Of a stretch of 16,675 nucleotides of DNA, positions 2,122 to 14,391 are shown piece by piece. Position numbers and translations under genes: made by a program. The stretch spans positions 1-16,675 of the forward strand of contig JAJDOH010000207.1 in the NCBI GenBank assembly GCA_022340265.1. The letters run 5' to 3'. The number at the start of each line of letters is the position of its first letter. Within the stretch, counting starts at the first letter, position 1. The notes beneath the pieces are model-generated. The model was not told the origin of the DNA, did no database searches, and saw only the letters and a list, made by a program, of their open reading frames with translations. Source of the DNA: Deltaproteobacteria bacterium (GTDB taxonomy: Bacteria; Desulfobacterota; DSM-4660; Desulfatiglandales; Desulfatiglandaceae).

Positions 2122-3171
2122 TCAGTCTTGTTTTCTTTCCCGGCTTTTCTGAAATCGCTTCACCGCCCAGTTGTGTTCCCGCAGGGTTTTAGAAAAATAA
2201 TGGGTGCCGTTATTTTTGGAAACAAAATAGTAATAGTTGCCTTCTGCCGGATTGAGCACCGCTTTTATGGCGGCCAGACCCGGATTTGCGATGGGGCCGG
2301 GTGGCAGCCCTTTGATGACGTACGTGTTGTAGGGCGTTTCGGTTCTGAGGTCCTTTTTGGTGATGTTTCCATTAAAATTGGTGACGCCGTAAATCACCGT
2401 GGGATCACTTTCAAGGCGCATGTTTCGATCGAGCCGGTTCAGGAACACGCGCGCAATCATGGGTCTTTCTTCAGGATTACCTGTCTCCTTTTCGACCATG
2501 GAGGCAAGGGTAATGACCTGCTCAAGTGCCAGGCCCGATTGACTGATCTGTTCTTCAAGGGGTGTGATGATATCCCGAAAACGTTTGACCAGGGTGGTGA
2601 TGATTTTGTCCGTTTTTTCTTTTCGCTGAAACCGGTATGTGTCCGGGTAAAGATACCCTTCAAGGGTGTTTCCGGAAAAGCCGAGGTGCGCTACCAGAGA
2701 TTTATCCCGCACCAGTGCCATGAAAGAATCCCTGCCCGCCAGCCCCTTCTGCGCCAGGAGTTCTGCAATCTGGTCCGAATTAAAGCCTTCGGGAATGGTG
2801 ACGGAAAGAGTTATGACCCGCCCTTTTTCAAGAATTTCAAGGATTTTCAATGGAGGCATGGCGCTGCTGAGACGGTATTCACCGGTTTTGATCATGTGGT
2901 CGTTTTCCATGAAGCGACCTGCCAGGCAAAAGAGGGTCTTGTTGCGAATAAGTCCCGAATTTTCAAGATCTGCTGCCACTTGATTCAGCGTGGCGCCTTC
3001 CTTTACCAGGAAATTCCGGCTTTCACCCTTTTTGTTTACGGGCCCCAGTCCGTACCGCACCCACAGGCTGGTGAAAAGAATAAAAAGGAGAAAGAGAAAA
3101 GCGGTCAGCAGCAGGATTGCCTTTGGCATTTCCCCAAAAAACCTGCATGATTTATCTGACTGTTCGTTCAT
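2122..3171 (-). CDS. mltG: Endolytic murein transglycosylase MltG (YceG-like)
   Basis: 349-aa ORF with an N-terminal TM helix (AILLLTAFLFLLFILFTSLWV). YceG motifs are present: LASMVEKE (catalytic Glu), VFLNRL, ESDPTVIYG, YNTYVIKGLPPGPIANPG, YYYFV. The start could also be the internal Met at MPKAILLL. Confidence 0.9.
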   Translation of the reverse strand: MNEQSDKSCRFFGEMPKAILLLTAFLFLLFILFTSLWVRYGLGPVNKKGESRNFLVKEGATLNQVAADLENSGLIRNKTLFCLAGRFMENDHMIKTGEYRLSSAMPPLKILEILEKGRVITLSVTIPEGFNSDQIAELLAQKGLAGRDSFMALVRDKSLVAHLGFSGNTLEGYLYPDTYRFQRKEKTDKIITTLVKRFRDIITPLEEQISQSGLALEQVITLASMVEKETGNPEERPMIARVFLNRLDRNMRLESDPTVIYGVTNFNGNITKKDLRTETPYNTYVIKGLPPGPIANPGLAAIKAVLNPAEGNYYYFVSKNNGTHYFSKTLREHNWAVKRFQKSRERKQD

Positions 3172-4130
3172 GATGCGGTCATTTCTTTCTGTTGCCCCCG
3201 AATTTTCGCCATCAGTGCGCCGATGCCCATGGCAGGCATGTCACCGCCGTTAAGATCCGACAGGTTTTCGAGAAATGCTCTGGCAGGGGGCGAAAGCTGC
3301 TGGTCTTTCAGATAAGCGATGCTCACATCCAAAAAAAGTGTCCGGTCATCAATGGATAAAGATGTCAAAAGCCCATTTTCCAACTCCATCAAAACCGCTG
3401 ATTCCACCAGGAAGGCGATGCCTTCGCCACGCTGGACCTCCATTTTGATGAATTCCGTGTTGCTGGTTTCCATGACGATGTTGGGGGTTATGTTGTTGCG
3501 GGCAAACATCCTGTCTACGAGGTGCCTGGTTCCGGAGCCCCCTTCCTTCATGATAATTCTTTCCCGGGCCAGCTCTTCAACGGATATGTCGGGTCTGGCG
3601 GCCAGAGGATGATCGGGGTGTGCGATGACGACGATTTCTTCACGGCTGAGGGGCAGAAATTGTACATCCGGGTGACTGACAATCTTGGCGATAATGACGA
3701 CTTCATTTTTAAAATCAACCAGGCTTTGAACCATGGATTGGGAACTCCCCTCATCCAGGCTGATGCGGATGTCTGAATAGGCCTGGTGAAAGCGGGTCAA
3801 CAAAAAAGGCATGAAATAGCGCGCGTAGGTTTTGGTGGTCCCCAGGCGCAAAACGCCCCGTTTTAATTCCTGCATTTCCTCAATAACAAACTCGATTTCC
3901 TTTTCGTAGTCGAACACATGTTTTGTGTATTCAAAAAGCGTCCTTCCCTCATCGGTCAAATGGACCCCACGGCCCTTTTTCCTGAAAAGTTTCATTTCGC
4001 AATGTTCTTCCAGCAATTTGATCTGGGCTGTTACCGCCGGCTGCGTAATGAAAAGATCCTTGGCCGCTGCTGTGAAATTAAGATTCTTGGCTGCATGATA
4101 AAATATGCGCAGTTGGTTGAAATTCAGCAT
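3168..4130 (-). CDS. LysR-family transcriptional regulator
   Basis: 320-aa ORF. The N-terminal wHTH MLNFNQLRIFYHAAKNLNFTAAAKDLFITQPAVTAQIKLLEEHCEMKLFRKKGRGVHLTDEGRTLF is classic LTTR, and the C-terminal part has substrate-binding-domain length. Its TGA stop overlaps the mltG ATG (ATGA at 3171-3168). Confidence 0.92.
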   Translation of the reverse strand: MLNFNQLRIFYHAAKNLNFTAAAKDLFITQPAVTAQIKLLEEHCEMKLFRKKGRGVHLTDEGRTLFEYTKHVFDYEKEIEFVIEEMQELKRGVLRLGTTKTYARYFMPFLLTRFHQAYSDIRISLDEGSSQSMVQSLVDFKNEVVIIAKIVSHPDVQFLPLSREEIVVIAHPDHPLAARPDISVEELARERIIMKEGGSGTRHLVDRMFARNNITPNIVMETSNTEFIKMEVQRGEGIAFLVESAVLMELENGLLTSLSIDDRTLFLDVSIAYLKDQQLSPPARAFLENLSDLNGGDMPAMGIGALMAKIRGQQKEMTAS

Positions 4131-4576: not shown

Positions 4577-5986
4577 ATGAAAAGCATGAGAGATTTTATT
4601 GAACTGGCGGAAAAGGAAGGTGAACTTAAAAGAATCACCGCGGAAGTGGATTGGAACCTTGAGTTGAGCCACATTGCCAAATTGAACGAAGAAGCACAGG
4701 GTCCTGCGCTCCTGTTTGAAAATGTCAAGGATTATGATACGCCGGTGATCACCAGCGCCTGTACCACCGCCCAGAAACTGGCCCTCATCATGGGGATGCC
4801 CAAGGATACCCCCCTTCCGGAGATCCTGCGCGGATGGGTGAAGATGGGCGAAAACCCCATTCCGGCCAAAATGGTGGACAAAAAAGATGCTCCCTGCAAA
4901 CAGAACATTATCATGGGCGATGATGTGGACCTCTACAAATTTCCCGTCCCCCATTTCTTCCCCCTGGACGGTGGCCGCTATATTGGAACAGCCCATTTTA
5001 TCGTCACCAAGGATCCTGAATCCGGCTGGGTGAACCTGGGCACCTACCGAAGCCAGTTGCTGGGCAAAAACAAGATCGGAACCCAGTTCATCAAAGGAAA
5101 GCATGCGGACCAGATGCTGAAGAAATACCAGAAGATGGGAAAATCCATGCCGTGCGCCTCCATCATCGGTTGTGATCCATTGCTCTTCATCCTGGGGGCA
5201 GCACGGGTTTCCGCGGAAATCAGTGAATATGACGTTTATGGCGCCATTCGCGGCGAGGCCTGTGAGGTGGTCATGGGTGAAACCGTTGATCTGCCCATTC
5301 CGGCCCACGCGGAAATCGTTCTGGAAGGGGAGTGCGATCCGGAAAAATTCATGGAAGAAGGCCCGTTTGGCGAGTACACGGGATACTATTCGGGTGTGGG
5401 TACCGATCCCAGAAACTACATGGATATCAAATGCGTCACCCATCGTGACAACCCCATCATGCACTCCACCACCGTGGGCCGGGCCGTCACCGACACCCAT
5501 ATGGTCATGGCCCTTTCATACGGCGCCACCCTCTGGCAGCAGTTGGCCGAGGAAATGCACATTCCGGGCATTAAGAGCGTTTACTGCCCCCCAGAGGGTT
5601 CCGGACGTTTTCTGGCCATCATTTCCGTGGAAACTCGATATCCCGGCCACGCTGATCAGGTATTGACCGCCGCCATATCAACGGAAATGGGCGCCTACGG
5701 TCTCAAAACCGTCATTGTGGTTGACGACGACATCGATGCATGGGATATCCCGAGGGTCATGTATGCGCTGAGCTTCCGCTTCCAACCCAACCGAAGTCAG
5801 GTCATCAAACGAGGCCGGTCTACACCACTCGATCCTTCATTGCCCATCGACGCCAGAGAGATCACCGGAAGGCTTCTGCTGGATGCGACCATCCCTTACG
5901 AATGGAAAAACAAACCGATTCCCATCACCCTCGATCCGGATATGGTCAAAAAGGTGAAAGGTCGCTGGTCCGAGTTGGGATTCTAG
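4577..5986 (+). CDS. UbiD-family prenylated-FMN-dependent (de)carboxylase
   Basis: 469-aa ORF with AAGGAGG RBS at 4560-4566. UbiD hallmarks are present: DGGRYIGT, TKDPESGWVNLGTYR (metal Asn plus catalytic Arg), KGKH, SEYDVYGAIRGE, VLEGE...EGPFGEYTGYY (acidic catalytic motif). Confidence 0.92.
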   Translation: MKSMRDFIELAEKEGELKRITAEVDWNLELSHIAKLNEEAQGPALLFENVKDYDTPVITSACTTAQKLALIMGMPKDTPLPEILRGWVKMGENPIPAKMVDKKDAPCKQNIIMGDDVDLYKFPVPHFFPLDGGRYIGTAHFIVTKDPESGWVNLGTYRSQLLGKNKIGTQFIKGKHADQMLKKYQKMGKSMPCASIIGCDPLLFILGAARVSAEISEYDVYGAIRGEACEVVMGETVDLPIPAHAEIVLEGECDPEKFMEEGPFGEYTGYYSGVGTDPRNYMDIKCVTHRDNPIMHSTTVGRAVTDTHMVMALSYGATLWQQLAEEMHIPGIKSVYCPPEGSGRFLAIISVETRYPGHADQVLTAAISTEMGAYGLKTVIVVDDDIDAWDIPRVMYALSFRFQPNRSQVIKRGRSTPLDPSLPIDAREITGRLLLDATIPYEWKNKPIPITLDPDMVKKVKGRWSELGF

Positions 5987-6100: not shown

Positions 6101-7756
6101 ATGAAACCGATTCGATACAAAGAAAAAATGGTGCAGGAGTTCCTGGATGACGGGCACTGGACCGAAGAGCTCTTCTACGACTTTTACGACCGCAACGCAA
6201 CGGAAATGCCTGATCAGGAAGCCCTGGTGGATTCAAAATACCGCGTGACCTGGGCGCAGGCCAAGAAAATGGTGGATGCCATGGCCATATCCTGGGTTGA
6301 AATGGGCATTCCCAAATCAGCCCGTGTGATTATTCAGTCCCCCAACAGCGTTTACGGTTTTTTGGCCAGGGTCGCGTGCGAACGGGCCGGTCTCATCTCT
6401 CTTACGGTTTATCCCTATTTAAGACAACGGGAACTGGAGTATATGCTGGAAAAAACCGAGGCCACGGCCGTGGTGATCCCGGAAGTCTACCGCAAGTTCA
6501 ATTACCTGGATATGTACAAGGACCTTCAGAAACGGTTCACGCATCTGAAATACTTCTTCCTCTTTGATGATCAGGTTCCCCAAGGCGCACCCGATGGCAC
6601 CTATTCCATCGTCCAGATGGTGGAAGAGCGCATGAAAAAGCCCGTGGATGAATCGCTGCTGGAGGAAAGACGTTTGGACGCCAAATGGGATGTGGCGCTG
6701 CTCACCACCACCAGCGGTACTACGGGAATTCCCAAGCTTGTGGAATGGCCCACGGCGCCCAGGGTCTGCACCTCCAAAGGCCGCGTGGGGATCTGGAAGC
6801 TTAACAAAGATGATATCACCATGGCCATTGCGCCCCATGCGGGCGGGGCGGCCGGAACCCTCACTTATTTCGCTGCCCCCATCGCCGGTGCCAAAACAGT
6901 CATGCTGGAGGAATTTACCCCCGAAGGGGCCCTGGCCCTCATCGAAAAAGAGAAGGCCACGGCCATCGGTGTGGTTCCCACGCACCTGGTGCGAATGCTG
7001 GAAGCGGATGTTAAGAAATACGACCTCAGTTCTTTACGATTTATCCGGTCTGCGGGCGGTTATCTGTCCCCCCAGGTGGCGGAAGAGGCGGAAGATGCCT
7101 TTGGCGCTAGCATTACCAGTGACCTGGGTACGCAGGACAAGGGATCGGTTTCCGGTTGCAGCGTGGAAGATAGCAAGGAGCTTCGCAGACGAACCGTGGG
7201 CCGTATGCTGCCCGGCAACAAGGTGCGTCTGGTGGATGAAGAAGGAAACGTGGTGCCCGATGGCGAACCGGGCATTCTCTATTTCCGAGGTCCCCATGCG
7301 CCGGCGGGATATTATCGGGACGAAGAACTGACCGCTACGGTCTTTGATGAAGACGGATGGTGTACCACCGAGGATATTGTCAGTTTTGACCAGGGATGCC
7401 TCTGGATTCTGGGGCGTGCCAAGGATATGATCATTCGCGGTGGCCAGAACATCTATCCCGCGGAAGTAGAAGGGCTGCTCAATGAGCATCCGAAAGTTTC
7501 TTCCGTTGCCATCGTGGGGTACCCGGACCGGGCCATGGGCGAGAAATGTGCCGCTTACGTCATTCCCAAACCGGGCGAGACCTTTACCTTTGAAGAAATG
7601 GTGGAATTCCTGAAAGGAAAACAGCTGGCCATGTTCAAGTTGCCCGAGCGTTTGGAAATAGTGGATGAATTTCCGGCGGTGGGAGATTCCGGCAAGGTCA
7701 ACAAGGAAACGTTAAAGAAGATGATCAAGGAGAAAGTCGAGGCAGAGCAGGGCTGA
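6101..7756 (+). CDS. AMP-forming acyl-CoA ligase (ANL superfamily; aromatic/alicyclic acid-CoA ligase-like)
   Basis: 551-aa ORF with AGGAGG RBS. It carries the AMP-binding P-loop LLTTTSGTTGIPKLV, the hinge/A8 motif GRAKDMIIRGGQNIYPAEVE and the A10 Lys in SGKVNK. Confidence 0.9.
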   Translation: MKPIRYKEKMVQEFLDDGHWTEELFYDFYDRNATEMPDQEALVDSKYRVTWAQAKKMVDAMAISWVEMGIPKSARVIIQSPNSVYGFLARVACERAGLISLTVYPYLRQRELEYMLEKTEATAVVIPEVYRKFNYLDMYKDLQKRFTHLKYFFLFDDQVPQGAPDGTYSIVQMVEERMKKPVDESLLEERRLDAKWDVALLTTTSGTTGIPKLVEWPTAPRVCTSKGRVGIWKLNKDDITMAIAPHAGGAAGTLTYFAAPIAGAKTVMLEEFTPEGALALIEKEKATAIGVVPTHLVRMLEADVKKYDLSSLRFIRSAGGYLSPQVAEEAEDAFGASITSDLGTQDKGSVSGCSVEDSKELRRRTVGRMLPGNKVRLVDEEGNVVPDGEPGILYFRGPHAPAGYYRDEELTATVFDEDGWCTTEDIVSFDQGCLWILGRAKDMIIRGGQNIYPAEVEGLLNEHPKVSSVAIVGYPDRAMGEKCAAYVIPKPGETFTFEEMVEFLKGKQLAMFKLPERLEIVDEFPAVGDSGKVNKETLKKMIKEKVEAEQG

Positions 7757-8979
7757 TGGAAAACAAAACCCGAAAGTCCGTTCTGGTTATTTCCACCCTG
7801 GATACCAAAGGCGTTGAGACACTCTACCTGAGGGACAAAATTATGTCCCTCGGGATCAATCCTCTGCTGATGGATATCTCCATGCGAGGGAAAGGCGATT
7901 CCCCCGCTGAAATTACCCCGGTCCAGGTGGCGGAAGCCGGGGGAAGCAGTCTCGAAGAGATTCATGCCTCCAGGGAACGGTCAAAAATTACCAATATCAC
8001 CATCAAAGGGGCCTCCGAAATTGCCAAAGGCCTCCATGCCCAAGGAAAATTAGACGGGGTGATTGCCATGGGGGGATCCACCGGATCTCTGATGGCCACT
8101 GAAGTCATGCGGTCGCTCCCTTTCGGTCTGCCCAAACTCATGATTTCGTCCACGGCGGCCCTGCCGGGTCTATCCACACGCTACATCGGTACCGGTGATA
8201 TCATGCTCTTTCATTCCGTGATCGAAATATCCGGTGTTACGGACCTCTTGAAGAATGTCATGGACCGGGCTGCCGGCGCTCTTGCGGGAATGGTTCAGGG
8301 GGACGTCGTCGCCGCCAAATCCAAAGCGGCCAAATCGGTTGCCATAACCATGTTGGGTCCCTGCGAGCAATGCGCCAGTTCCGTCAGAAAGGTTCTGGCG
8401 GGGGCGGGTTATCAGGTTACCGGGTTTTCAGCTGCGGGTATCAGTGATCGTGCCATGGAAGAAATGATTGCAAACGGCCTGTTCCAGGGGGTGGTGGATT
8501 TGGCACCGGGCGGTGTGGGAGAGCATCTGTTTGGTTTCATGCGGGACGCAGGTCCCCATCGCATGGAAACCGCGGGAAATGCCGGTCTGCCGCAGGTGAT
8601 TTCCACCTGCAGCGTGAACCACATGACGCCCTCCAAACGCAAATACAAGCCTGAATACCATGAAAGACGGAAATACGACCTGGACAAGCTGAGAACCTGG
8701 ATCCGGCTTTCGCCTGAAGAGCTGAAAGAAGTAGCGGTGGCATTTGCGGAAAAACTGAACCGTGCCAAAGGACCCGTTTGCGTGATGCTGCCGCTGAAAG
8801 GTTGGTCGTCGGTGGATTATCCGGGGAATGCCACGTTTGATCCGGAAGAAGACCAATTGTTTAATGAGGTGCTTCGCGAAAAGTTGAACCCGCATATTGA
8901 CATCATTGAAGTGGATGCCAATATGGAGGATCCGGCGTTTGCGGAAGCGGTGGCACAGGCTGCGTTGAAGATTTTCTGA
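7756..8979 (+). CDS. Tm-1-like / UPF0261 family ATP-binding protein (function unknown)
   Basis: 407-aa ORF. The N-terminus VLVISTLDTKGVETLYLRDKI and the overall length match the UPF0261 (tomato Tm-1 N-terminal domain) family as I recall it. Its start overlaps the ligase stop (TGATG, 7754-7758). Confidence 0.75.
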   Translation: MENKTRKSVLVISTLDTKGVETLYLRDKIMSLGINPLLMDISMRGKGDSPAEITPVQVAEAGGSSLEEIHASRERSKITNITIKGASEIAKGLHAQGKLDGVIAMGGSTGSLMATEVMRSLPFGLPKLMISSTAALPGLSTRYIGTGDIMLFHSVIEISGVTDLLKNVMDRAAGALAGMVQGDVVAAKSKAAKSVAITMLGPCEQCASSVRKVLAGAGYQVTGFSAAGISDRAMEEMIANGLFQGVVDLAPGGVGEHLFGFMRDAGPHRMETAGNAGLPQVISTCSVNHMTPSKRKYKPEYHERRKYDLDKLRTWIRLSPEELKEVAVAFAEKLNRAKGPVCVMLPLKGWSSVDYPGNATFDPEEDQLFNEVLREKLNPHIDIIEVDANMEDPAFAEAVAQAALKIF

Positions 8980-8992
8980 AAAGGGGTTCACC

Positions 8993-9553
8993 ATGAAAAA
9001 AAGATTGGTTGTGGGCATATCGGGTGCCAGTGGCGTCATATACGGCGTTAGAATGCTGGGGCTGCTCAAGGAAACCGATTTTGAGACCCATCTCATTATC
9101 TCCGATTCAGGCAGGCGGAACATTGAAATTGAAACCGATTTCAAGCCGGTTGATGTGGAGGCCATGGCCGACCATGTCTATGAAGACCGGGATGTTGGGG
9201 CGGCGCTTGCCAGCGGATCTTTTCTGACCTGCGGAATGGTTGTGGCGCCCTGCACCATCAAGACCCTTTCCGGCATTGCCAATTCCTACACCAGTAACCT
9301 TCTGGTTCGGGCGGCGGATGTCAACCTGAAAGAGGGCCGGAAACTGGTCCTGATGGTGAGAGAAACCCCTTTGCACAAAGGGCATCTTCGATTGATGACC
9401 ATGGCGGCGGATATGGGTGCCCATATTTTGCCGCCGGTGCCCTCATTTTATCATCAACCCAAAACCCTTCAGGATATTATCGATCAAAGCATCGGAAAGG
9501 TGTTTGATTATCTGGGCGTTGAGCATCAACTGTTCAGGCGTTGGGAGGGGTAA
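8993..9553 (+). CDS. ubiX: UbiX/Pad1 flavin prenyltransferase (prFMN synthase)
   Basis: 186-aa ORF. MKKRLVVGISGASGVIYGVRML...THLIISD...VVAPCTIKTLSGIANSYTSNLLVRAADVNLKEGRKLVLMVRETPLHKGHLRLM...PPVPSFY is near-canonical UbiX. It starts 13 nt after the preceding stop. Confidence 0.95.
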   Translation: MKKRLVVGISGASGVIYGVRMLGLLKETDFETHLIISDSGRRNIEIETDFKPVDVEAMADHVYEDRDVGAALASGSFLTCGMVVAPCTIKTLSGIANSYTSNLLVRAADVNLKEGRKLVLMVRETPLHKGHLRLMTMAADMGAHILPPVPSFYHQPKTLQDIIDQSIGKVFDYLGVEHQLFRRWEG

Positions 9554-10319
9554 AGAGCGGCCGGTTATTGATTTGTTGCGCGATCTTTCCGGCTGCTTCC
9601 CGGATTTCTGCTTCTAATATTCCCATCATGTGATCATCGAGTGCCGATTTAAAGCCCACTGCCCAGATGGCATAGAGTTTACCCTGTTTTCCACGAATGG
9701 GAGCCGCTGCGGCGCGGACACCGTCAATATATTCCTCGTCGTCGGAGGCATAACCATTTTCTTTTGCGCGGCTTACCGCAATGAGGTAAGCATCCGGATC
9801 GGTAATGGTTCGGGCGGTGAATCTGGGAATTCCTTTCTCAACAATCATGCTGTTCGCTTGCTCGGGGTCCATGGAAGCGAGAAAAATCTTGCCGATGGCC
9901 CCGGCCAGAAGGGGGATGGTACTTCCCCTGGGTGCCGTTATTTTAAGATTATGGTTCGATTCCACAACGTCCAGAATGCTGACCCGCCGGCCGTTGGGGA
10001 TGCCGAAGAAAACGGACGCGCCGGTTTGTTCCATCAATTTTTCCATGATGGGTCTGGCAATTTCCCGAAGGTCAAGCTCCGAATAGGCGGTTTTCCCGAG
10101 TTCAAAGAGGGTGGGACCTAAAAAATATCTTTTGGAAGAAGGATCTCGAATCAGGGCCCCTTCTTCGACCATGGCACTGATAATGCCATGAGCGGTGCCC
10201 TTGCTCATTTCCAGCTGATTGGCCAGATGGCTGAGGTTCAACCCTTTTGGGCTCCTGGCAATCTGTCGAAGTATTGAAAAGGCTTTTCTGACGGATGGGG
10301 CTTGGTATTTTCCGGACAT
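9534..10319 (-). CDS. IclR-family transcriptional regulator
   Basis: 261-aa ORF with an N-terminal wHTH (VRKAFSILRQIARSPKGLNLSHLANQLEMSKGTAHGIISAMVEEGAL) and a C-terminal IclR effector domain of typical length. GAGGTG RBS is the rc of about 10325-10330. Its 3' end overlaps the ubiX 3' end by 20 nt. Confidence 0.9.
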   Translation of the reverse strand: MSGKYQAPSVRKAFSILRQIARSPKGLNLSHLANQLEMSKGTAHGIISAMVEEGALIRDPSSKRYFLGPTLFELGKTAYSELDLREIARPIMEKLMEQTGASVFFGIPNGRRVSILDVVESNHNLKITAPRGSTIPLLAGAIGKIFLASMDPEQANSMIVEKGIPRFTARTITDPDAYLIAVSRAKENGYASDDEEYIDGVRAAAAPIRGKQGKLYAIWAVGFKSALDDHMMGILEAEIREAAGKIAQQINNRPLFTPPNA

Positions 10320-10491: not shown

Positions 10492-10603
10492 CTCAACGAA
10501 TGCTTAAGGTTCGGTAAGTTTAAGGGGTGTGTCGCTTTTAGATTTATCAATTTCACGACAAAAGGGGCGGTTTTTAGCGGTCCCGAAAAATCAGGAGGGT
10601 AAA

Positions 10604-11482
10604 ATGCTTTTACCGAAATTTGAATTCCATGAGCCCGAAACGGTCGAAGAGGCCTGCCGGATACTTGGGGAACTGGGCGAAAAGGCCAAAACCCTTGCGG
10701 GCGGGACGGATCTACTGGTCAACATGAAGAAGAAACTGCTTGCGCCCGAGCATGTGGTGTCACTGGATAGGATCGCATCACTTGCGGAAATAGATGTCTC
10801 CAACGGGACACTCAAGATAGGTGCCTGCGCCAAGGCGGCCGATATTGCAGAATCGAAGGCCGTTATCAAAGAGTTTCCCGCATTGCAGACGGGCGCGTCC
10901 AAATTGGGCTCGCCATTGATTCGAAATCTTGCAACGATTGGGGGAAACCTGGTTTCAGCACGGCCCGCTGCGGACTTTCCACCGCCACTGATGGCCTATG
11001 GGGCAAGTGTTGTTCTGAGAAGCGGCACCGGCCAGCGGACTGTCGCACTGTCGGATTTTATAGAAGGGCCCGGTCAAACCGTTCTTTTGCCCGAAGAGAT
11101 TCTTGAAGCCGTTCTGCTGGAAAAGCCTGAAGCCTATTCCGGAAGTGCATATTATAAACTGGGGATTCGGGAGGCGCTGGAGATTTCACTGGTTAATATT
11201 GCCGTCTCTATTACGACCGATGGTCCCGGAGGCGCCATTAAAGCTGGAAGCGTCGTAATGGGATCCGTGGGTCCCACGCCGCTCTTGTCACCATCCGCTG
11301 AAAAAGTGCTGGTTGGAGAAAAACCGTCTGAAGCCCTTTTTCTTGCGGCTGGAGAAGCGGCTGCCATGGATAGCAAACCCATTGATGATTTCAGGGCAAG
11401 CGCTGGGTACAAAAGGGCCATGGTCAAGGAGTTGACCAAAAGAGCACTGCTTCAGGCATATGAGCGTGTGTGCAGTGAATAA
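10604..11482 (+). CDS. Mo-hydroxylase medium subunit, FAD-binding (CoxM/XdhB-like)
   Basis: I prefer the ATG at 10604, preceded by AGGAGG at 10593-10598, over the track's GTG at 10529. This gives a 292-aa protein. It carries the FAD-binding PCMH motifs LAGGTDLLVNMK and ATIGGNL, plus a C-terminal CO-dehydrogenase flavoprotein domain (RASAGYKRAM). Confidence 0.9.
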   Translation: MLLPKFEFHEPETVEEACRILGELGEKAKTLAGGTDLLVNMKKKLLAPEHVVSLDRIASLAEIDVSNGTLKIGACAKAADIAESKAVIKEFPALQTGASKLGSPLIRNLATIGGNLVSARPAADFPPPLMAYGASVVLRSGTGQRTVALSDFIEGPGQTVLLPEEILEAVLLEKPEAYSGSAYYKLGIREALEISLVNIAVSITTDGPGGAIKAGSVVMGSVGPTPLLSPSAEKVLVGEKPSEALFLAAGEAAAMDSKPIDDFRASAGYKRAMVKELTKRALLQAYERVCSE

Positions 11483-11562
11483 ATGGGTCGCCATGGAAAG
11501 AAATTCCGGTAGGACACAACTCAAAAACGGCGATCGGGAATATAAATTAAGAGGAGAGAACG

Positions 11563-12027
11563 ATGAAAGAGATGATCTGCCTCACCATAAACGGCAAAGA
11601 ATATGAATTGGCTGTGGCACCCAATATGACCCTGGCGGACCTTTTAAGGGAAGAGCTTTTATTGACGGGCACGAAAAAGGGGTGTGAACTGGGGGATTGT
11701 GGAACGTGTACCGTTATCATGAATGGCAAAGCGGTCAATTCCTGTCTGGTTCTGGCCGTTCAGGCCTCGGGCAAAGAAATAACCACTGTTGAGGGTCTTG
11801 AAACCGATGAAGGCCTGCATCCCTTGCAGGAAAAATTCATTGAAAACGGCGCCATTCAGTGCGGGTTTTGTACTTCCGGAATGTTGCTCAGTGCAAAAAG
11901 TCTTCTGGACAAGAACCCGAAACCCGATGAAACGGAAATTCGTACCGCCATATCCGGCAATCTGTGCAGATGTACCGGCTATCAGAAGATTGTTGAGTCC
12001 ATCAAAGATGCCAGTGAAGGGAGATAG
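11563..12027 (+). CDS. Mo-hydroxylase small subunit, two [2Fe-2S] clusters (CoxS/XdhC-iron-sulfur-like)
   Basis: 154-aa ORF with GAGGAG RBS. It has the plant-type motif CELGDCGTCTV...NSC and the second-cluster motif QCGFCTSGM...CRCTGY. Confidence 0.95.
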   Translation: MKEMICLTINGKEYELAVAPNMTLADLLREELLLTGTKKGCELGDCGTCTVIMNGKAVNSCLVLAVQASGKEITTVEGLETDEGLHPLQEKFIENGAIQCGFCTSGMLLSAKSLLDKNPKPDETEIRTAISGNLCRCTGYQKIVESIKDASEGR

Positions 12028-12030
12028 GAA

Positions 12031-14391
12031 ATGACCGAATATCATGTGATCAATGGACGGGCCCCGCGACTGGATGCTCCTGCCAAAGCAACCGGTAGGG
12101 CCATATATGTGGATGACATCAAACTTCCGGGCATGCTTTACGGCGCATTGCTGCAGAGTCCCCTGGCCCATGCCAAGATTCTCAATATTGATACCGCCAA
12201 GGCACGGAAACTTCCCGGCGTCAAATCGGTGGTCACCGCGGAAGAGGCGGGAATGGTTCATTATGGGGTGAGTCCCGCTCGATATGATGAAACCCTTTTT
12301 GTCAAAGATCGGGTACGCTATATCGGCGATGAAATTGCCGCTGTGGCCGCAGTGGATTTGGAAACAGCCCTCGAAGCCGTTTCCCTGATTGATGTGGAAT
12401 ACGAGGAACTGCCGGCGATCTTTACCATGGAAGAAGCCATGGCTGAAGGGGCGCCGCAGATTCATGAAAAATATCCCCGTAACATCGGTGCGGAAGTTCA
12501 CCAGGAATTCGGAAACGTGGAAGAGGCCTTCGCCCAGTGCGATCTAATTCGAACCGATACGTTTTTAAACAAAAGGCAGGACGGCGCGTTTCTGGAACCG
12601 AACGGAGTTGTGGCCGATTACGACCGTAACGGATTTTTGACACTTCATTCTTCCACCCAGGTGCCCCACTATGTCATGCGGATTATTGCCATGGTGCTGG
12701 GGATTCCCATCGGAAAGGTGAGAGTGAAAAAGCCTTATGTGGGAGGTGGTTTCGGCCCCAAGGCGGGTACCAATTCCATGGAACTGGCCTCATGTCTTCT
12801 TTCCATCAAGACCGGCAAGCCGGTCAAAATGAATTTTACGCGGGAGCAGGTTTTTCTCTTTTCGAGGGGCAGACATCAATTTAAACACACCCTGACGACG
12901 GGTGTCAAGAAAGACGGAACGCTGATGGCGTTGGCCAACGAGTGCTATCTGGAGGGGGGCGCATACACCAGTTTCGGGATTGCCACCGTCTATTATGCGG
13001 GATCACTTCTGGGTGCACCTTACAGACTGCCCAACATGAAATATGATGGTTTCCGGCTGTACACCAACCGGCCCGCCTGCGGCGCGCAGCGGGGGCACGG
13101 TGGCGTAGCGGCCCGGGCTGCCTGGGAACAGCAGATTGATTTTATTGCCGAAGAATTGGGCATGGATCCGGTGGATTTTCGGCTCAAAAACTCCATGGAA
13201 GCAGGCGACATCACCTGCAACGATTTCAATACCAGCAGTTTCGGCATGAAGGAATGCATTGAAGCCGTCAGAGACGGTTCCAAATGGAGTGAGAAAAAGG
13301 GAAAAATGTCTGAAGGCAAGGGGATCGGTATTGCCACGGGATTTTTCGTCTCCGGTGCAGGGTATCCCATTTACCGTTCTGAAACAGCCCACTCCACGGT
13401 GGTCATCAAATTGAGCGAGGACGGGGGAACGGCCCATGTGCTCACGGGAAGTGCTGAAATCGGTCAGGGTTCAGATACCGCCATGGCCATGATTGCCGCC
13501 GAAGCCCTGGGCGTGCCGCTGGACAGCATCAGGATATCATCAGGGGATACCGATTACAGCGTTGACCTCGGTGCCTATTCCAGCCGCCAGACCCTCATGA
13601 CCGGTCATGCCACCAAGGCTGCCGCCGAGGATCTGAAGGAGCAGGTCCTGGCGGTTTTGAGCGAAAAGCTGGATGTGCCGGTGGAACGGATGGACATCAA
13701 AAACGGCTTTATCGTGTTCAAGGGTGAACCGCCTGACTTTGGCGGCCTCAGAGCCACCTATGCCAAAGAGCATCGGGGTTTTTCAGACAACCCGGGTCTG
13801 GATGAGCCGCTCACCTTCAGAGAGGCGGCGCGAATCGCCTATTTGACCCTGGGATCCATGGTGGGCACCGGCAGTTACAAGCCGGGTGAACTGGGCGGTA
13901 AATTCAAGGGGGCTGCCGTCGGCACGTCTCCGGCGTACGGTCCATCCGCTCAGGTGGTGGAAATAACCGTTGACAAAGGGACGGGCAAGATTACCATTGA
14001 CCGCATGACCGATGCCCACGACTGCGGTTTTGCCATCAACCGAACGTCGGTGGAAGCGCAGATGCAGGGGTCTCTCTCCATGGGTGTCGGCGAGGCCATG
14101 TATGAGGAAGTGAAGTTTGATGATAAGGGGAAGATTTTGAACGCCAATTTGGGCGAGTACAAAATTGCGACAGCGCTCGATATGCCCAATGTGGATGCCA
14201 TCATCGTTGAAAGCAACGAACCCAATGGTCCATTCGGTGCCAAGGAGGTGGGTGAAGGGGCGATCATGCCCACCATTCCCGCCATACTGAATGCCCTCTA
14301 CGATGCTACCGGCGTCAGGATTCAGGAATTGCCTCTAACGCCTGAGCGGGTGTTCAAAGCCATTCGGGAAAAGGAAGACAAGGAGAAATAG
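12031..14391 (+). CDS. Mo-hydroxylase large subunit, molybdopterin-binding (xanthine dehydrogenase/aldehyde oxidase family)
   Basis: 786-aa ORF starting 3 nt after the small-subunit stop. Family motifs are present: ATGRAIYVDDIKLPGML...SPLAHAKI, RYIGDEIAAVAA, GGGFGPK, and the C-terminal catalytic-Glu loop PFGAKEVGEGAI. Confidence 0.93.
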   Translation: MTEYHVINGRAPRLDAPAKATGRAIYVDDIKLPGMLYGALLQSPLAHAKILNIDTAKARKLPGVKSVVTAEEAGMVHYGVSPARYDETLFVKDRVRYIGDEIAAVAAVDLETALEAVSLIDVEYEELPAIFTMEEAMAEGAPQIHEKYPRNIGAEVHQEFGNVEEAFAQCDLIRTDTFLNKRQDGAFLEPNGVVADYDRNGFLTLHSSTQVPHYVMRIIAMVLGIPIGKVRVKKPYVGGGFGPKAGTNSMELASCLLSIKTGKPVKMNFTREQVFLFSRGRHQFKHTLTTGVKKDGTLMALANECYLEGGAYTSFGIATVYYAGSLLGAPYRLPNMKYDGFRLYTNRPACGAQRGHGGVAARAAWEQQIDFIAEELGMDPVDFRLKNSMEAGDITCNDFNTSSFGMKECIEAVRDGSKWSEKKGKMSEGKGIGIATGFFVSGAGYPIYRSETAHSTVVIKLSEDGGTAHVLTGSAEIGQGSDTAMAMIAAEALGVPLDSIRISSGDTDYSVDLGAYSSRQTLMTGHATKAAAEDLKEQVLAVLSEKLDVPVERMDIKNGFIVFKGEPPDFGGLRATYAKEHRGFSDNPGLDEPLTFREAARIAYLTLGSMVGTGSYKPGELGGKFKGAAVGTSPAYGPSAQVVEITVDKGTGKITIDRMTDAHDCGFAINRTSVEAQMQGSLSMGVGEAMYEEVKFDDKGKILNANLGEYKIATALDMPNVDAIIVESNEPNGPFGAKEVGEGAIMPTIPAILNALYDATGVRIQELPLTPERVFKAIREKEDKEK

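Follow-up and report, generated by a model that had tools for sequence, protein, structure and literature searches.

We examined the gene for a stand-alone protein of the UPF0261 family in a 16,675-nucleotide (nt) stretch of DNA, here called the window, which is contig JAJDOH010000207.1 (assembly GCA_022340265.1) of a Deltaproteobacteria bacterium from the family Desulfatiglandaceae, phylum Desulfobacterota. Our results show that the gene lies in an anaerobic phenol cluster of the Desulfatiglans type. They also show that in this phylum, genes of the UPF0261 family and genes for PpcD and PpcA, two subunits of the phenylphosphate carboxylase known from Thauera, largely exclude each other beside PpcB-type UbiD genes. 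This raises the possibility, to which we give an even chance, that a single-UbiD phenylphosphate carboxylase has the UPF0261 protein as its phosphoryl-handling partner instead of PpcA and PpcD.

UPF0261 genes and PpcA/PpcD genes in phenylphosphate carboxylase clusters

The phenylphosphate carboxylase of Thauera aromatica is PpcABCD, according to Schuhle & Fuchs 2004 as relayed in PMC6114531. The window genome resembles that system in its PpcB-type UbiD subunit, in a phenylphosphate synthase gene present in the genome, and in the UbiX gene of the cluster. It differs in that PpcA, PpcC, and PpcD are absent beside UbiD and a UPF0261 gene is present instead. In 401 genomes sampled from the phylum, a search for PpcB-type UbiD identified 76 loci in 71 genomes, and UPF0261 was counted as near when it lay no more than 12 kb from the UbiD locus. 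This was the case at 48 of the 76 loci. When the loci were cross-tabulated, 46 had UPF0261 only, 22 had PpcD only, 2 had both, and 6 had neither; in 4 of these last 6, the contig is short or the locus lies at its start. PpcA was also found at 20 of the 22 PpcD-only loci. Fisher's exact test for UPF0261 versus PpcD gives p = 1e-11, a value that overstates the exclusion because related genomes are not independent. Both architectures occur inside five shared taxonomic families, which indicates that the switch between them happened repeatedly. The profile TIGR02724, classed as an "equivalog," was passed in 71/401 genomes; it covers the two subunit architectures, and its name hides the split.

The same division was seen when a PpcD-like gene was sought with tblastn. 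Such a gene was found at 20/20 loci without UPF0261, at 2/80 loci of the window type, and at 0/8 loci of a second gene order (both described below). The loci without UPF0261 carry a beta UbiD, one or two PpcD-like genes of the HAD family, an alpha-type UbiD, usually a third UbiD-like gene, and UbiX, which is the Thauera architecture; UbiX was within the fetched stretch in 17 of the 20 clusters sampled. The phenylphosphate synthase genes (PpsAB) and UbiX are present in both architectures. As UPF0261 is present where PpcD and the second UbiD are absent, and vice versa, independently of PpsAB and UbiX, a phosphoryl-handling partner is the most economical reading of its distribution.

The window genome itself follows this pattern. 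No alpha-type UbiD (PpcA) was found among its two UbiD genes, the second of which is a menaquinone decarboxylase gene beside MqnP. The only match to PpcD (TIGR02726) scored 156 bits against a cutoff of 282 and is a KdsC-like gene on another contig. PpcC (TIGR02725) had no match in the window genome, and the control genomes likewise gave none.

A Desulfatiglans-type phenol operon

The genes in and around the operon are as follows.

3168..4130, minus strand: LysR-type regulator, divergent from the operon (open reading frame [ORF] listing)
4577..5986, plus strand: PpcB-type UbiD-family (de)carboxylase (Pfam UbiD_N, UbiD, and UbiD_C)
6101..7756, plus strand: aryl-acid adenylating enzyme/coenzyme A (CoA) ligase, DhbE/EntE-like (Pfam AMP-binding and AMP-binding_C)
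7756..8979, plus strand: stand-alone UPF0261 (Tm-1/MarK fold) ATP-binding phosphotransferase-like protein, 407 amino acids (aa) (Pfam, NCBIfam, and fold)
8993..9553, plus strand: UbiX flavin prenyltransferase (NF004685, 258 bits versus a cutoff of 188)
9534..10319, minus strand: IclR-type regulator, convergent with ubiX (Pfam HTH_IclR and IclR_C)
10529..14391, plus strand: three-subunit molybdenum (Mo) enzyme with flavin adenine dinucleotide (FAD), 2Fe-2S, and Mo subunits, 4-hydroxybenzoyl-CoA reductase-like (Pfam, all three subunits)

The UbiD, ligase, UPF0261, and ubiX genes form a tight four-gene operon on the plus strand. The first-pass annotation had described the UPF0261 gene as an integral operon member, and we confirmed the details on which it drew: the UPF0261 ATG and the ligase TGA have base 7756 in common (TGATG), and the UPF0261 stop codon at 8977-8979 is followed after 13 nt by the ubiX ATG at 8993. 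Terminator-like sites between the four genes did not exceed chance expectation. The UbiD gene scored 522 bits with TIGR02724 (phenylphosphate carboxylase beta; cutoff, 469) and is the sole PpcB-type UbiD gene of the genome; ubiX is likewise the only one, with a single tblastn match. The best PDB matches of the ligase are 2,3-dihydroxybenzoate (DHB)-AMP and salicylate-AMP ligases, and the protein is probably a 4-hydroxybenzoate-CoA ligase. Its A5 motif is atypical, reading LGTQDKG where DHB- and salicylate-AMP ligases have FGMAEG. The Mo subunit (12031-14391) scored 882 bits with TIGR03194 (4-hydroxybenzoyl-CoA reductase alpha), under the cutoff of 995, and may therefore not be a canonical 4-hydroxybenzoyl-CoA reductase (HCR). 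Among related loci, neighbor mapping placed a LysR homolog in the equivalent divergent position in most, and Mo enzyme genes follow ubiX in many, as they do in Desulfatiglans anilini (02053-02055); the IclR gene has its counterpart in the closest loci (L012, L013, L016, and L017).

This operon is a Desulfatiglans-type anaerobic phenol cluster. It contains, co-linearly, a ppcB-type UbiD gene and the genes for a 552-aa aryl-AMP ligase, a UPF0261 protein, UbiX, and an Hcr-like Mo enzyme, and pps genes are present in the genome. A Desulfatiglans locus (L008), whose UPF0261 homolog is 72% identical to the window protein, has the order UbiD, 552-aa ligase, UPF0261, UbiX, FAD, 2Fe-2S, Mo, PpsA-like, PpsB-like, CheY-like receiver, and PaaK-type ligase. 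It corresponds to the phe cluster of D. anilini, H567DRAFT_02059 to 02049, with identical protein lengths for the products whose lengths were retrieved (7/11). That cluster (H567DRAFT_02049-02059) is phenol-induced and was described together with an ani cluster, 03868-03872 (Xie & Muller 2018, PMC6114531; Xie et al. 2020, PMC7500099). Two differences distinguish the window genome from the phe cluster. Its ppsA, ppsB, and receiver genes are on a separate 10-kb contig (C20) and its PaaK-type ligase gene is on yet another contig, and an IclR gene splits ubiX from the Mo enzyme genes.

The syntenic ortholog of the window ORF in D. anilini is H567DRAFT_02057, a 403-aa "Uncharacterized protein, UPF0261 family" (Table S1, PMC7500099). 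Its mass spectrometry areas were 0 on 4-aminobenzoate, 5.0e7 on aniline, 5.3e7 on benzoate, and 2.5e9 on phenol (PMC7500099); in these published proteomes the protein is thus induced about 50-fold by phenol. The ligase ortholog, 02058, ranks among the most abundant proteins induced by phenol; its function is given as unknown by the authors. A paralog in the ani cluster, 03869, was detected only on aniline and 4-aminobenzoate (PMC7500099) and is encoded between phenylphosphoamidate synthase genes, a 549-aa ligase gene, and a second PpcB-type UbiD gene. As the whole ani cluster was induced on both of these substrates, the proteome cannot separate a ligase-linked from a carboxylase-linked role. 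In both D. anilini papers, the UPF0261 gene appears as an unnamed "uncharacterized" arrow and is not mentioned in the text (PMC6114531, PMC7500099). The statement that no described UbiD system includes this component was therefore mistaken: the phe and ani clusters had been published with the gene, unnamed.

A further gene of these operons encodes a CheY-like single-domain receiver of ~170 aa, conserved in phenol operons and found at C20:2239-2748 (L167) in the window genome. In many loci it lies between UbiD and the ligase (L018:7481, L011:7647-8159), and its D. anilini ortholog, 02050, is phenol-induced. Receiver domains and HAD phosphatases both use aspartyl-phosphate chemistry.

The presence of this receiver in many of the operons, together with the fact that Tm-1 works by ATP-bridged protein binding and not by catalysis, would fit a UPF0261 protein that acts as a regulatory nucleotide sensor or protein kinase, controlling for example PpsA or the CheY-like protein, with no direct catalysis. 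We consider this extremely unlikely, given that the ortholog reaches enzyme-like abundance in phenol-grown D. anilini and that the distribution of the gene follows the subunit composition of the carboxylase, not regulators.

Conservation of the linkage

A scan of species-representative genomes yielded 80 loci whose UPF0261 proteins are 54-86% identical to that of the window. These loci are from Desulfatiglandales, Desulfobacterales, and Syntrophobacter-, Syntrophus-, and Syntrophorhabdus-like metagenome-assembled genomes (MAGs), plus one Acidobacteriota MAG, and their predominant order is PpsA-PpsB-UbiD-(response regulator)-ligase-UPF0261-UbiX. The linkage first noticed in a single genome thus extends well beyond it: the ligase is directly upstream of UPF0261 in 52 of the 68 loci whose upstream flank is 2 kb or longer, and UbiX is no more than 1.8 kb downstream in 44/56. 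When only loci of 65% identity or more and with an upstream flank of 8 kb or longer are counted, the ligase holds this position in 32/35. An upstream flank of 8 kb or longer is available for 49 loci in all; UbiD is found in 42 of them and PpsA and PpsB are both found in 37. The TGATG overlap is common to 7 related loci. The subclade of the window protein (at least 84% identity) has no pps genes in the cluster; PpsA-like genes (43-65% identity) are present elsewhere in the window genome and in 5/5 of the closest genomes checked. Relatives at 44-47% identity have the ligase and a Pps-like subunit nearby, one with UbiD and the other with a biotinyl carrier, and their gene orders vary.

A second gene order, PpsA-PpsB-UbiD-UPF0261-(second UPF0261)-(CBS protein, Nudix, or PaaK-type ligase)-UbiX, places UPF0261 directly after UbiD, and the 552-aa ligase is absent. 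Because this order keeps UbiD as the neighbor of UPF0261 where the ligase is missing, the constant neighbor is the carboxylase, not the ligase. The UPF0261 copy beside UbiD often has a rewritten loop, D-E-R..A, and the second copy keeps D-[ST]-K..E (loci L139-L146, e.g., L139:10306-11541 and L143:3016-4260). To judge from these motifs, the two copies hint at a possible heteromer of an adaptor and a catalytic subunit.

These arrangements bear on the suggestion that the UPF0261 protein assists the ligase. A product-side role of this kind could consist of phosphorylating the 4-OH of 4-hydroxybenzoate(-CoA), for example easing reductive dehydroxylation, or of helping the adenylating enzyme. It would agree with the translational coupling to the ligase, with the ligase's upstream position at most loci, with a pair that stays intact when UbiX moves (L085, L086, and L088), with the atypical A5 motif of the ligase, and with the substrate range of the UPF0261 kinase MarK, which prefers phenols with a para carbonyl and also phosphorylates vanillate (PMC12624787). 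We nevertheless judge it quite improbable. The second gene order has UPF0261 beside UbiD with a PaaK-type ligase replacing this ligase, the known pathway requires no such step, and the pocket has no carboxylate-binding basic residue. As a proposal about this particular ligase, the earlier suggestion is not borne out by the second order.

Many clusters also encode, between UPF0261 and ubiX, a CBS-domain-like protein of ~216-239 aa that resembles the gamma subunit of phenylphosphate synthase (L139:12780-13469, L046:11236-11955, L053:9270-9920, and L064:11233-11895; none in the window). The presence of such a gamma-like CBS-pair gene alongside UPF0261 weakens the idea that UPF0261 replaces the Pps gamma subunit. 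A Nudix hydrolase gene occurs within ~1.5 kb of ubiX in both architectures (L141:3919-4476, L144:6202-6834, L156, and L161). It directly adjoins ubiX in L141 and L144 and is a candidate source of dimethylallyl monophosphate (DMAP) from dimethylallyl diphosphate (DMAPP).

The first-pass annotation had proposed an ATP-dependent accessory role, with supply of DMAP to UbiX and help with the maturation or loading of prenylated flavin mononucleotide (prFMN) among the options. Such a role, tied to the UbiD system, is likely; the DMAP and prFMN ideas are disfavored, and we regard them as very improbable. In their favor, almost every gene order has UPF0261 between ubiD and ubiX, and how prFMN matures anaerobically, without oxygen, is an open question. 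Against them, all 20 sampled clusters without UPF0261 are of the Thauera type with no more than three UbiD-family genes, and 17 show UbiX. UbiD turned up in 9 of 14 control genomes and UPF0261 in 1. The ani genes 03868-03872 include UPF0261 and no ubiX, the sole reported ubiX-like gene of D. anilini being in the phe cluster. The Nudix hydrolase near UbiX in several clusters is a more conventional candidate for a DMAP source. Finally, the UPF0261 pocket varies between paralog clades, which fits differing aromatics and would not be predicted for a common prenyl substrate.

The UPF0261 protein and its known relatives

The assignment of the 407-aa ORF to UPF0261 was upheld by Pfam and NCBIfam profiles. 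The N-terminal domain, PF06792, matches residues 7-182 (3.7e-52; 177 bits versus a cutoff of 27), the C-terminal domain, PF23189, matches residues 193-406 (3.4e-65; 220 bits versus a cutoff of 27), and NCBIfam NF002674 scores 372 bits versus a cutoff of 335. An AlphaFold2 model was built on 59 homologs (mean predicted local distance difference test score, 92.8). In a fold search against the PDB, the best matches of the model were MarK (9MPY; E value, 7.5e-37) and tomato Tm-1 (TM-score, 0.85), and 9MPY is also the best PDB match by sequence (3e-57, full-length alignment). The nucleotide loop D16-T17-K18 aligns with D14-T15-K16 of MarK in its active E16K form. In the alignment of 59 sequences, K18 and E21 are invariant and D16 and T17 are kept in at least 90%. 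The window protein is thus a stand-alone UPF0261 protein whose fold is of the two-domain Tm-1/MarK type and whose nucleotide loop is intact. Fusions among family representatives are to PEP_hydrolase, GNAT, or TIR domains and never to UbiD or a ligase, and are uninformative.

The family had been described as having no assigned biochemical function, a view that is now outdated. MarK (Saro_1862; PDB 9MPY) of Novosphingobium aromaticivorans is a stand-alone homodimeric UPF0261 kinase (Hall et al., J Biol Chem 2025, PMC12624787). It phosphorylates the phenolic OH of acetovanillone and of many other aromatics, converts ATP to ADP, and needs no partner protein (PMC12624787). Its Lys16 is essential for activity, and the Gly195 backbone and His219 bind the phenolic oxygen (PMC12624787). 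In N. aromaticivorans, it stands in for the PpsAB-like two-subunit kinase AcvAB/HpeHI (PMC12624787). MarK and the window protein have in common the Pfam family, the two-domain fold, the lack of a TIM-barrel partner, the D-T-K loop, and Gly195 (Gly201 in the window protein), and both operons place aromatic phosphorylation before carboxylation. They differ in that the carboxylase there is the biotin-dependent AcvCDE and here is a prFMN-dependent UbiD, and in that MarK replaces a PpsAB-type kinase whereas the window genome also encodes one. The likeness to Tm-1 lies in the fold (TM-score of 0.85 to 3WRW/3WRX) and in the ATP-binding N-terminal subdomain.

The seven positions of the MarK acetovanillone pocket read G-P-S-H-T-L-V in the window clade. 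This set is almost invariant among sequences of at least 65% identity and is different in more distant paralogs. A pocket that is constant within a clade and variable between paralogs is the pattern expected of a substrate-specificity site. The clade also has a histidine at position 289, where the MarK counterpart is Phe283.

The activity of MarK suggests an alternative in which the window protein would itself phosphorylate phenol at a lower cost (phenol + ATP -> phenylphosphate + ADP), alongside or instead of PpsAB (ATP -> AMP + Pi). MarK itself replaces AcvAB/HpeHI in acetovanillone catabolism. The operons of the window subclade (L012-L017) lack pps genes, and a UbiD-ligase-UPF0261-UbiX set would be self-sufficient; moreover, the phenylphosphate-formation assay in D. 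anilini did not decide between AMP and ADP as the product. We consider this alternative unlikely. PpsA and PpsB accompany UPF0261 in the majority of clusters (37/49) and are encoded elsewhere in the window genome and its five closest relatives, the exclusion is with PpcD/PpcA and not with PpsAB, and some UbiD-adjacent copies have an altered ATP loop. The stricter version, in which UPF0261 is the only phenol kinase and replaces PpsAB, found no supporting case, as the window genome and the five closest genomes all have PpsA-like genes.

A PEP-hydrolase-like TIM-barrel partner (PF09370) had been reported missing from the window, and this stands: PF09370 had no match in the window or in the whole genome, which is 97% complete. 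The window genome thus differs from the known UPF0261 + PEP-hydrolase-like (TBST) gene pairs. The expectation that a TIM-barrel protein is the usual partner does not hold in this phylum, where PF09370 was found in 11/301 genomes, a separate minority, versus UPF0261 at 48/76 PpcB-type UbiD loci. Where the two are co-located on one contig, the PF09370 gene adjoins a distinct UPF0261 clade with ~32-37% identity to the window protein.

The window genome has four UPF0261 paralogs, and none of the other three is near a UbiD gene. One of them, on contig C145 (L005:7687-8901, minus strand), is closest to MarK (42% identity) and keeps the equivalent of His219; it is flanked by flavodoxin and trypsin-like protease genes and has no catabolic neighbors. 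Another, on contig C311 (37% identity), is in a different operon (L007:4016-12485, minus strand) with the order FAD amine-oxidase-like, short-chain dehydrogenase/reductase (SDR), UPF0261, PaaK-type ligase (6-nt gap), carboxyltransferase (HMGL-like + PYC_OADA), SDR, and enoyl-CoA hydratase; PpsA-/PpsB-like genes lie farther along C311. This operon looks like a hydroxyacetophenone- or acetovanillone-type pathway, with phosphorylation followed by biotin-dependent carboxylation.

Proposed role in phenol carboxylation

In the pathway that we propose, PpsAB, encoded on another contig, would convert phenol to phenylphosphate. The PpcB-type UbiD, with prFMN from the UbiX of the operon, would then para-carboxylate the ring, the upstream ligase would capture 4-hydroxybenzoate as its CoA ester, and the downstream Mo enzyme would take off the hydroxyl. 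The UPF0261 protein would act at the carboxylation step, with the aryl (phosphate) substrate in the pocket of its C-terminal domain and the nucleotide at D16-T17-K18. With ADP/ATP as the other partner, it would shuttle the phosphoryl group to or from the aryl oxygen and would pass phenolate to UbiD. In this way it would fill the place that PpcD (a HAD phosphatase) and PpcA (the second UbiD subunit) have in the Thauera-type enzyme. We infer in this scheme what the substrate is, that the protein physically associates with UbiD, and which way the phosphoryl group moves.

Two results from D. anilini are compatible with such a partner and are no proof of it. Extracts showed no consumption of phenylphosphate in a carboxylase assay without nucleotide, and two recombinant UbiD subunits carboxylated phenylphosphoamidate, not phenylphosphate.

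Several points, in addition to the non-independence of related genomes, weigh against a role as phosphoryl-handling partner. His219 of MarK, which bonds the phenolic oxygen, is replaced by Ser225 in 32 of the 34 sequences of at least 65% identity, and six of the seven MarK pocket residues are changed in the window protein. The two proteins are 32-34% identical and belong to different subclades: in a FastTree phylogeny of 141 family members, MarK clusters with the C145 paralog and not with the window protein, whose path length to MarK is 3.06. By this phylogeny, the window protein is not a MarK ortholog. The changed loop in the UbiD-adjacent copies of the second gene order suggests a structural, not catalytic, role for those copies. 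The aniline-type carboxylase is active in vitro without UPF0261. Lastly, D. anilini expresses a second, unlinked UbiD paralog on phenol, so that the replacement of PpcA may not hold everywhere.

A more specific version of the partner role is that the UPF0261 protein stands in for the hydrolytic PpcD and conserves energy. At the carboxylase, it would use phenylphosphate to phosphorylate ADP (phenylphosphate + ADP -> phenolate + ATP), and the phenolate would go to UbiD. An aryl phosphate such as phosphotyrosine has about the same energy content as the gamma-phosphate of ATP, and a UPF0261 kinase should therefore operate close to equilibrium. We regard this version as unlikely. If true, phenol activation would cost one ATP equivalent instead of two. 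A question raised in the literature is how sulfate reducers and syntrophs can pay "up to four ATP equivalents" to carboxylate phenol and activate 4-hydroxybenzoate, and recovery of ATP from phenylphosphate would answer it.

Implications

Both the cluster type and the kinase family are already known. In the literature searched, neither a connection of the UPF0261 kinases to the phenol cluster nor the complementarity of UPF0261 with PpcA/PpcD was found. In strict anaerobes, the phenol clusters have a beta-type UbiD alone. Phenylphosphate carboxylase activity has yet to be reconstituted from an organism of this kind (D. anilini), and the accepted phenol pathway seems to cost more energy than a sulfate reducer can afford. 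The UPF0261 protein, which is conserved, induced by substrate, and encoded where the alpha and delta subunits are missing, is a concrete candidate for the missing component. Our results also show that in this phylum the commonest genomic partner of UPF0261 is a UbiD carboxylase, not a TIM-barrel protein. If the proposed role is true, the UPF0261 family, which is large and has hardly been studied, would gain a second functional context.

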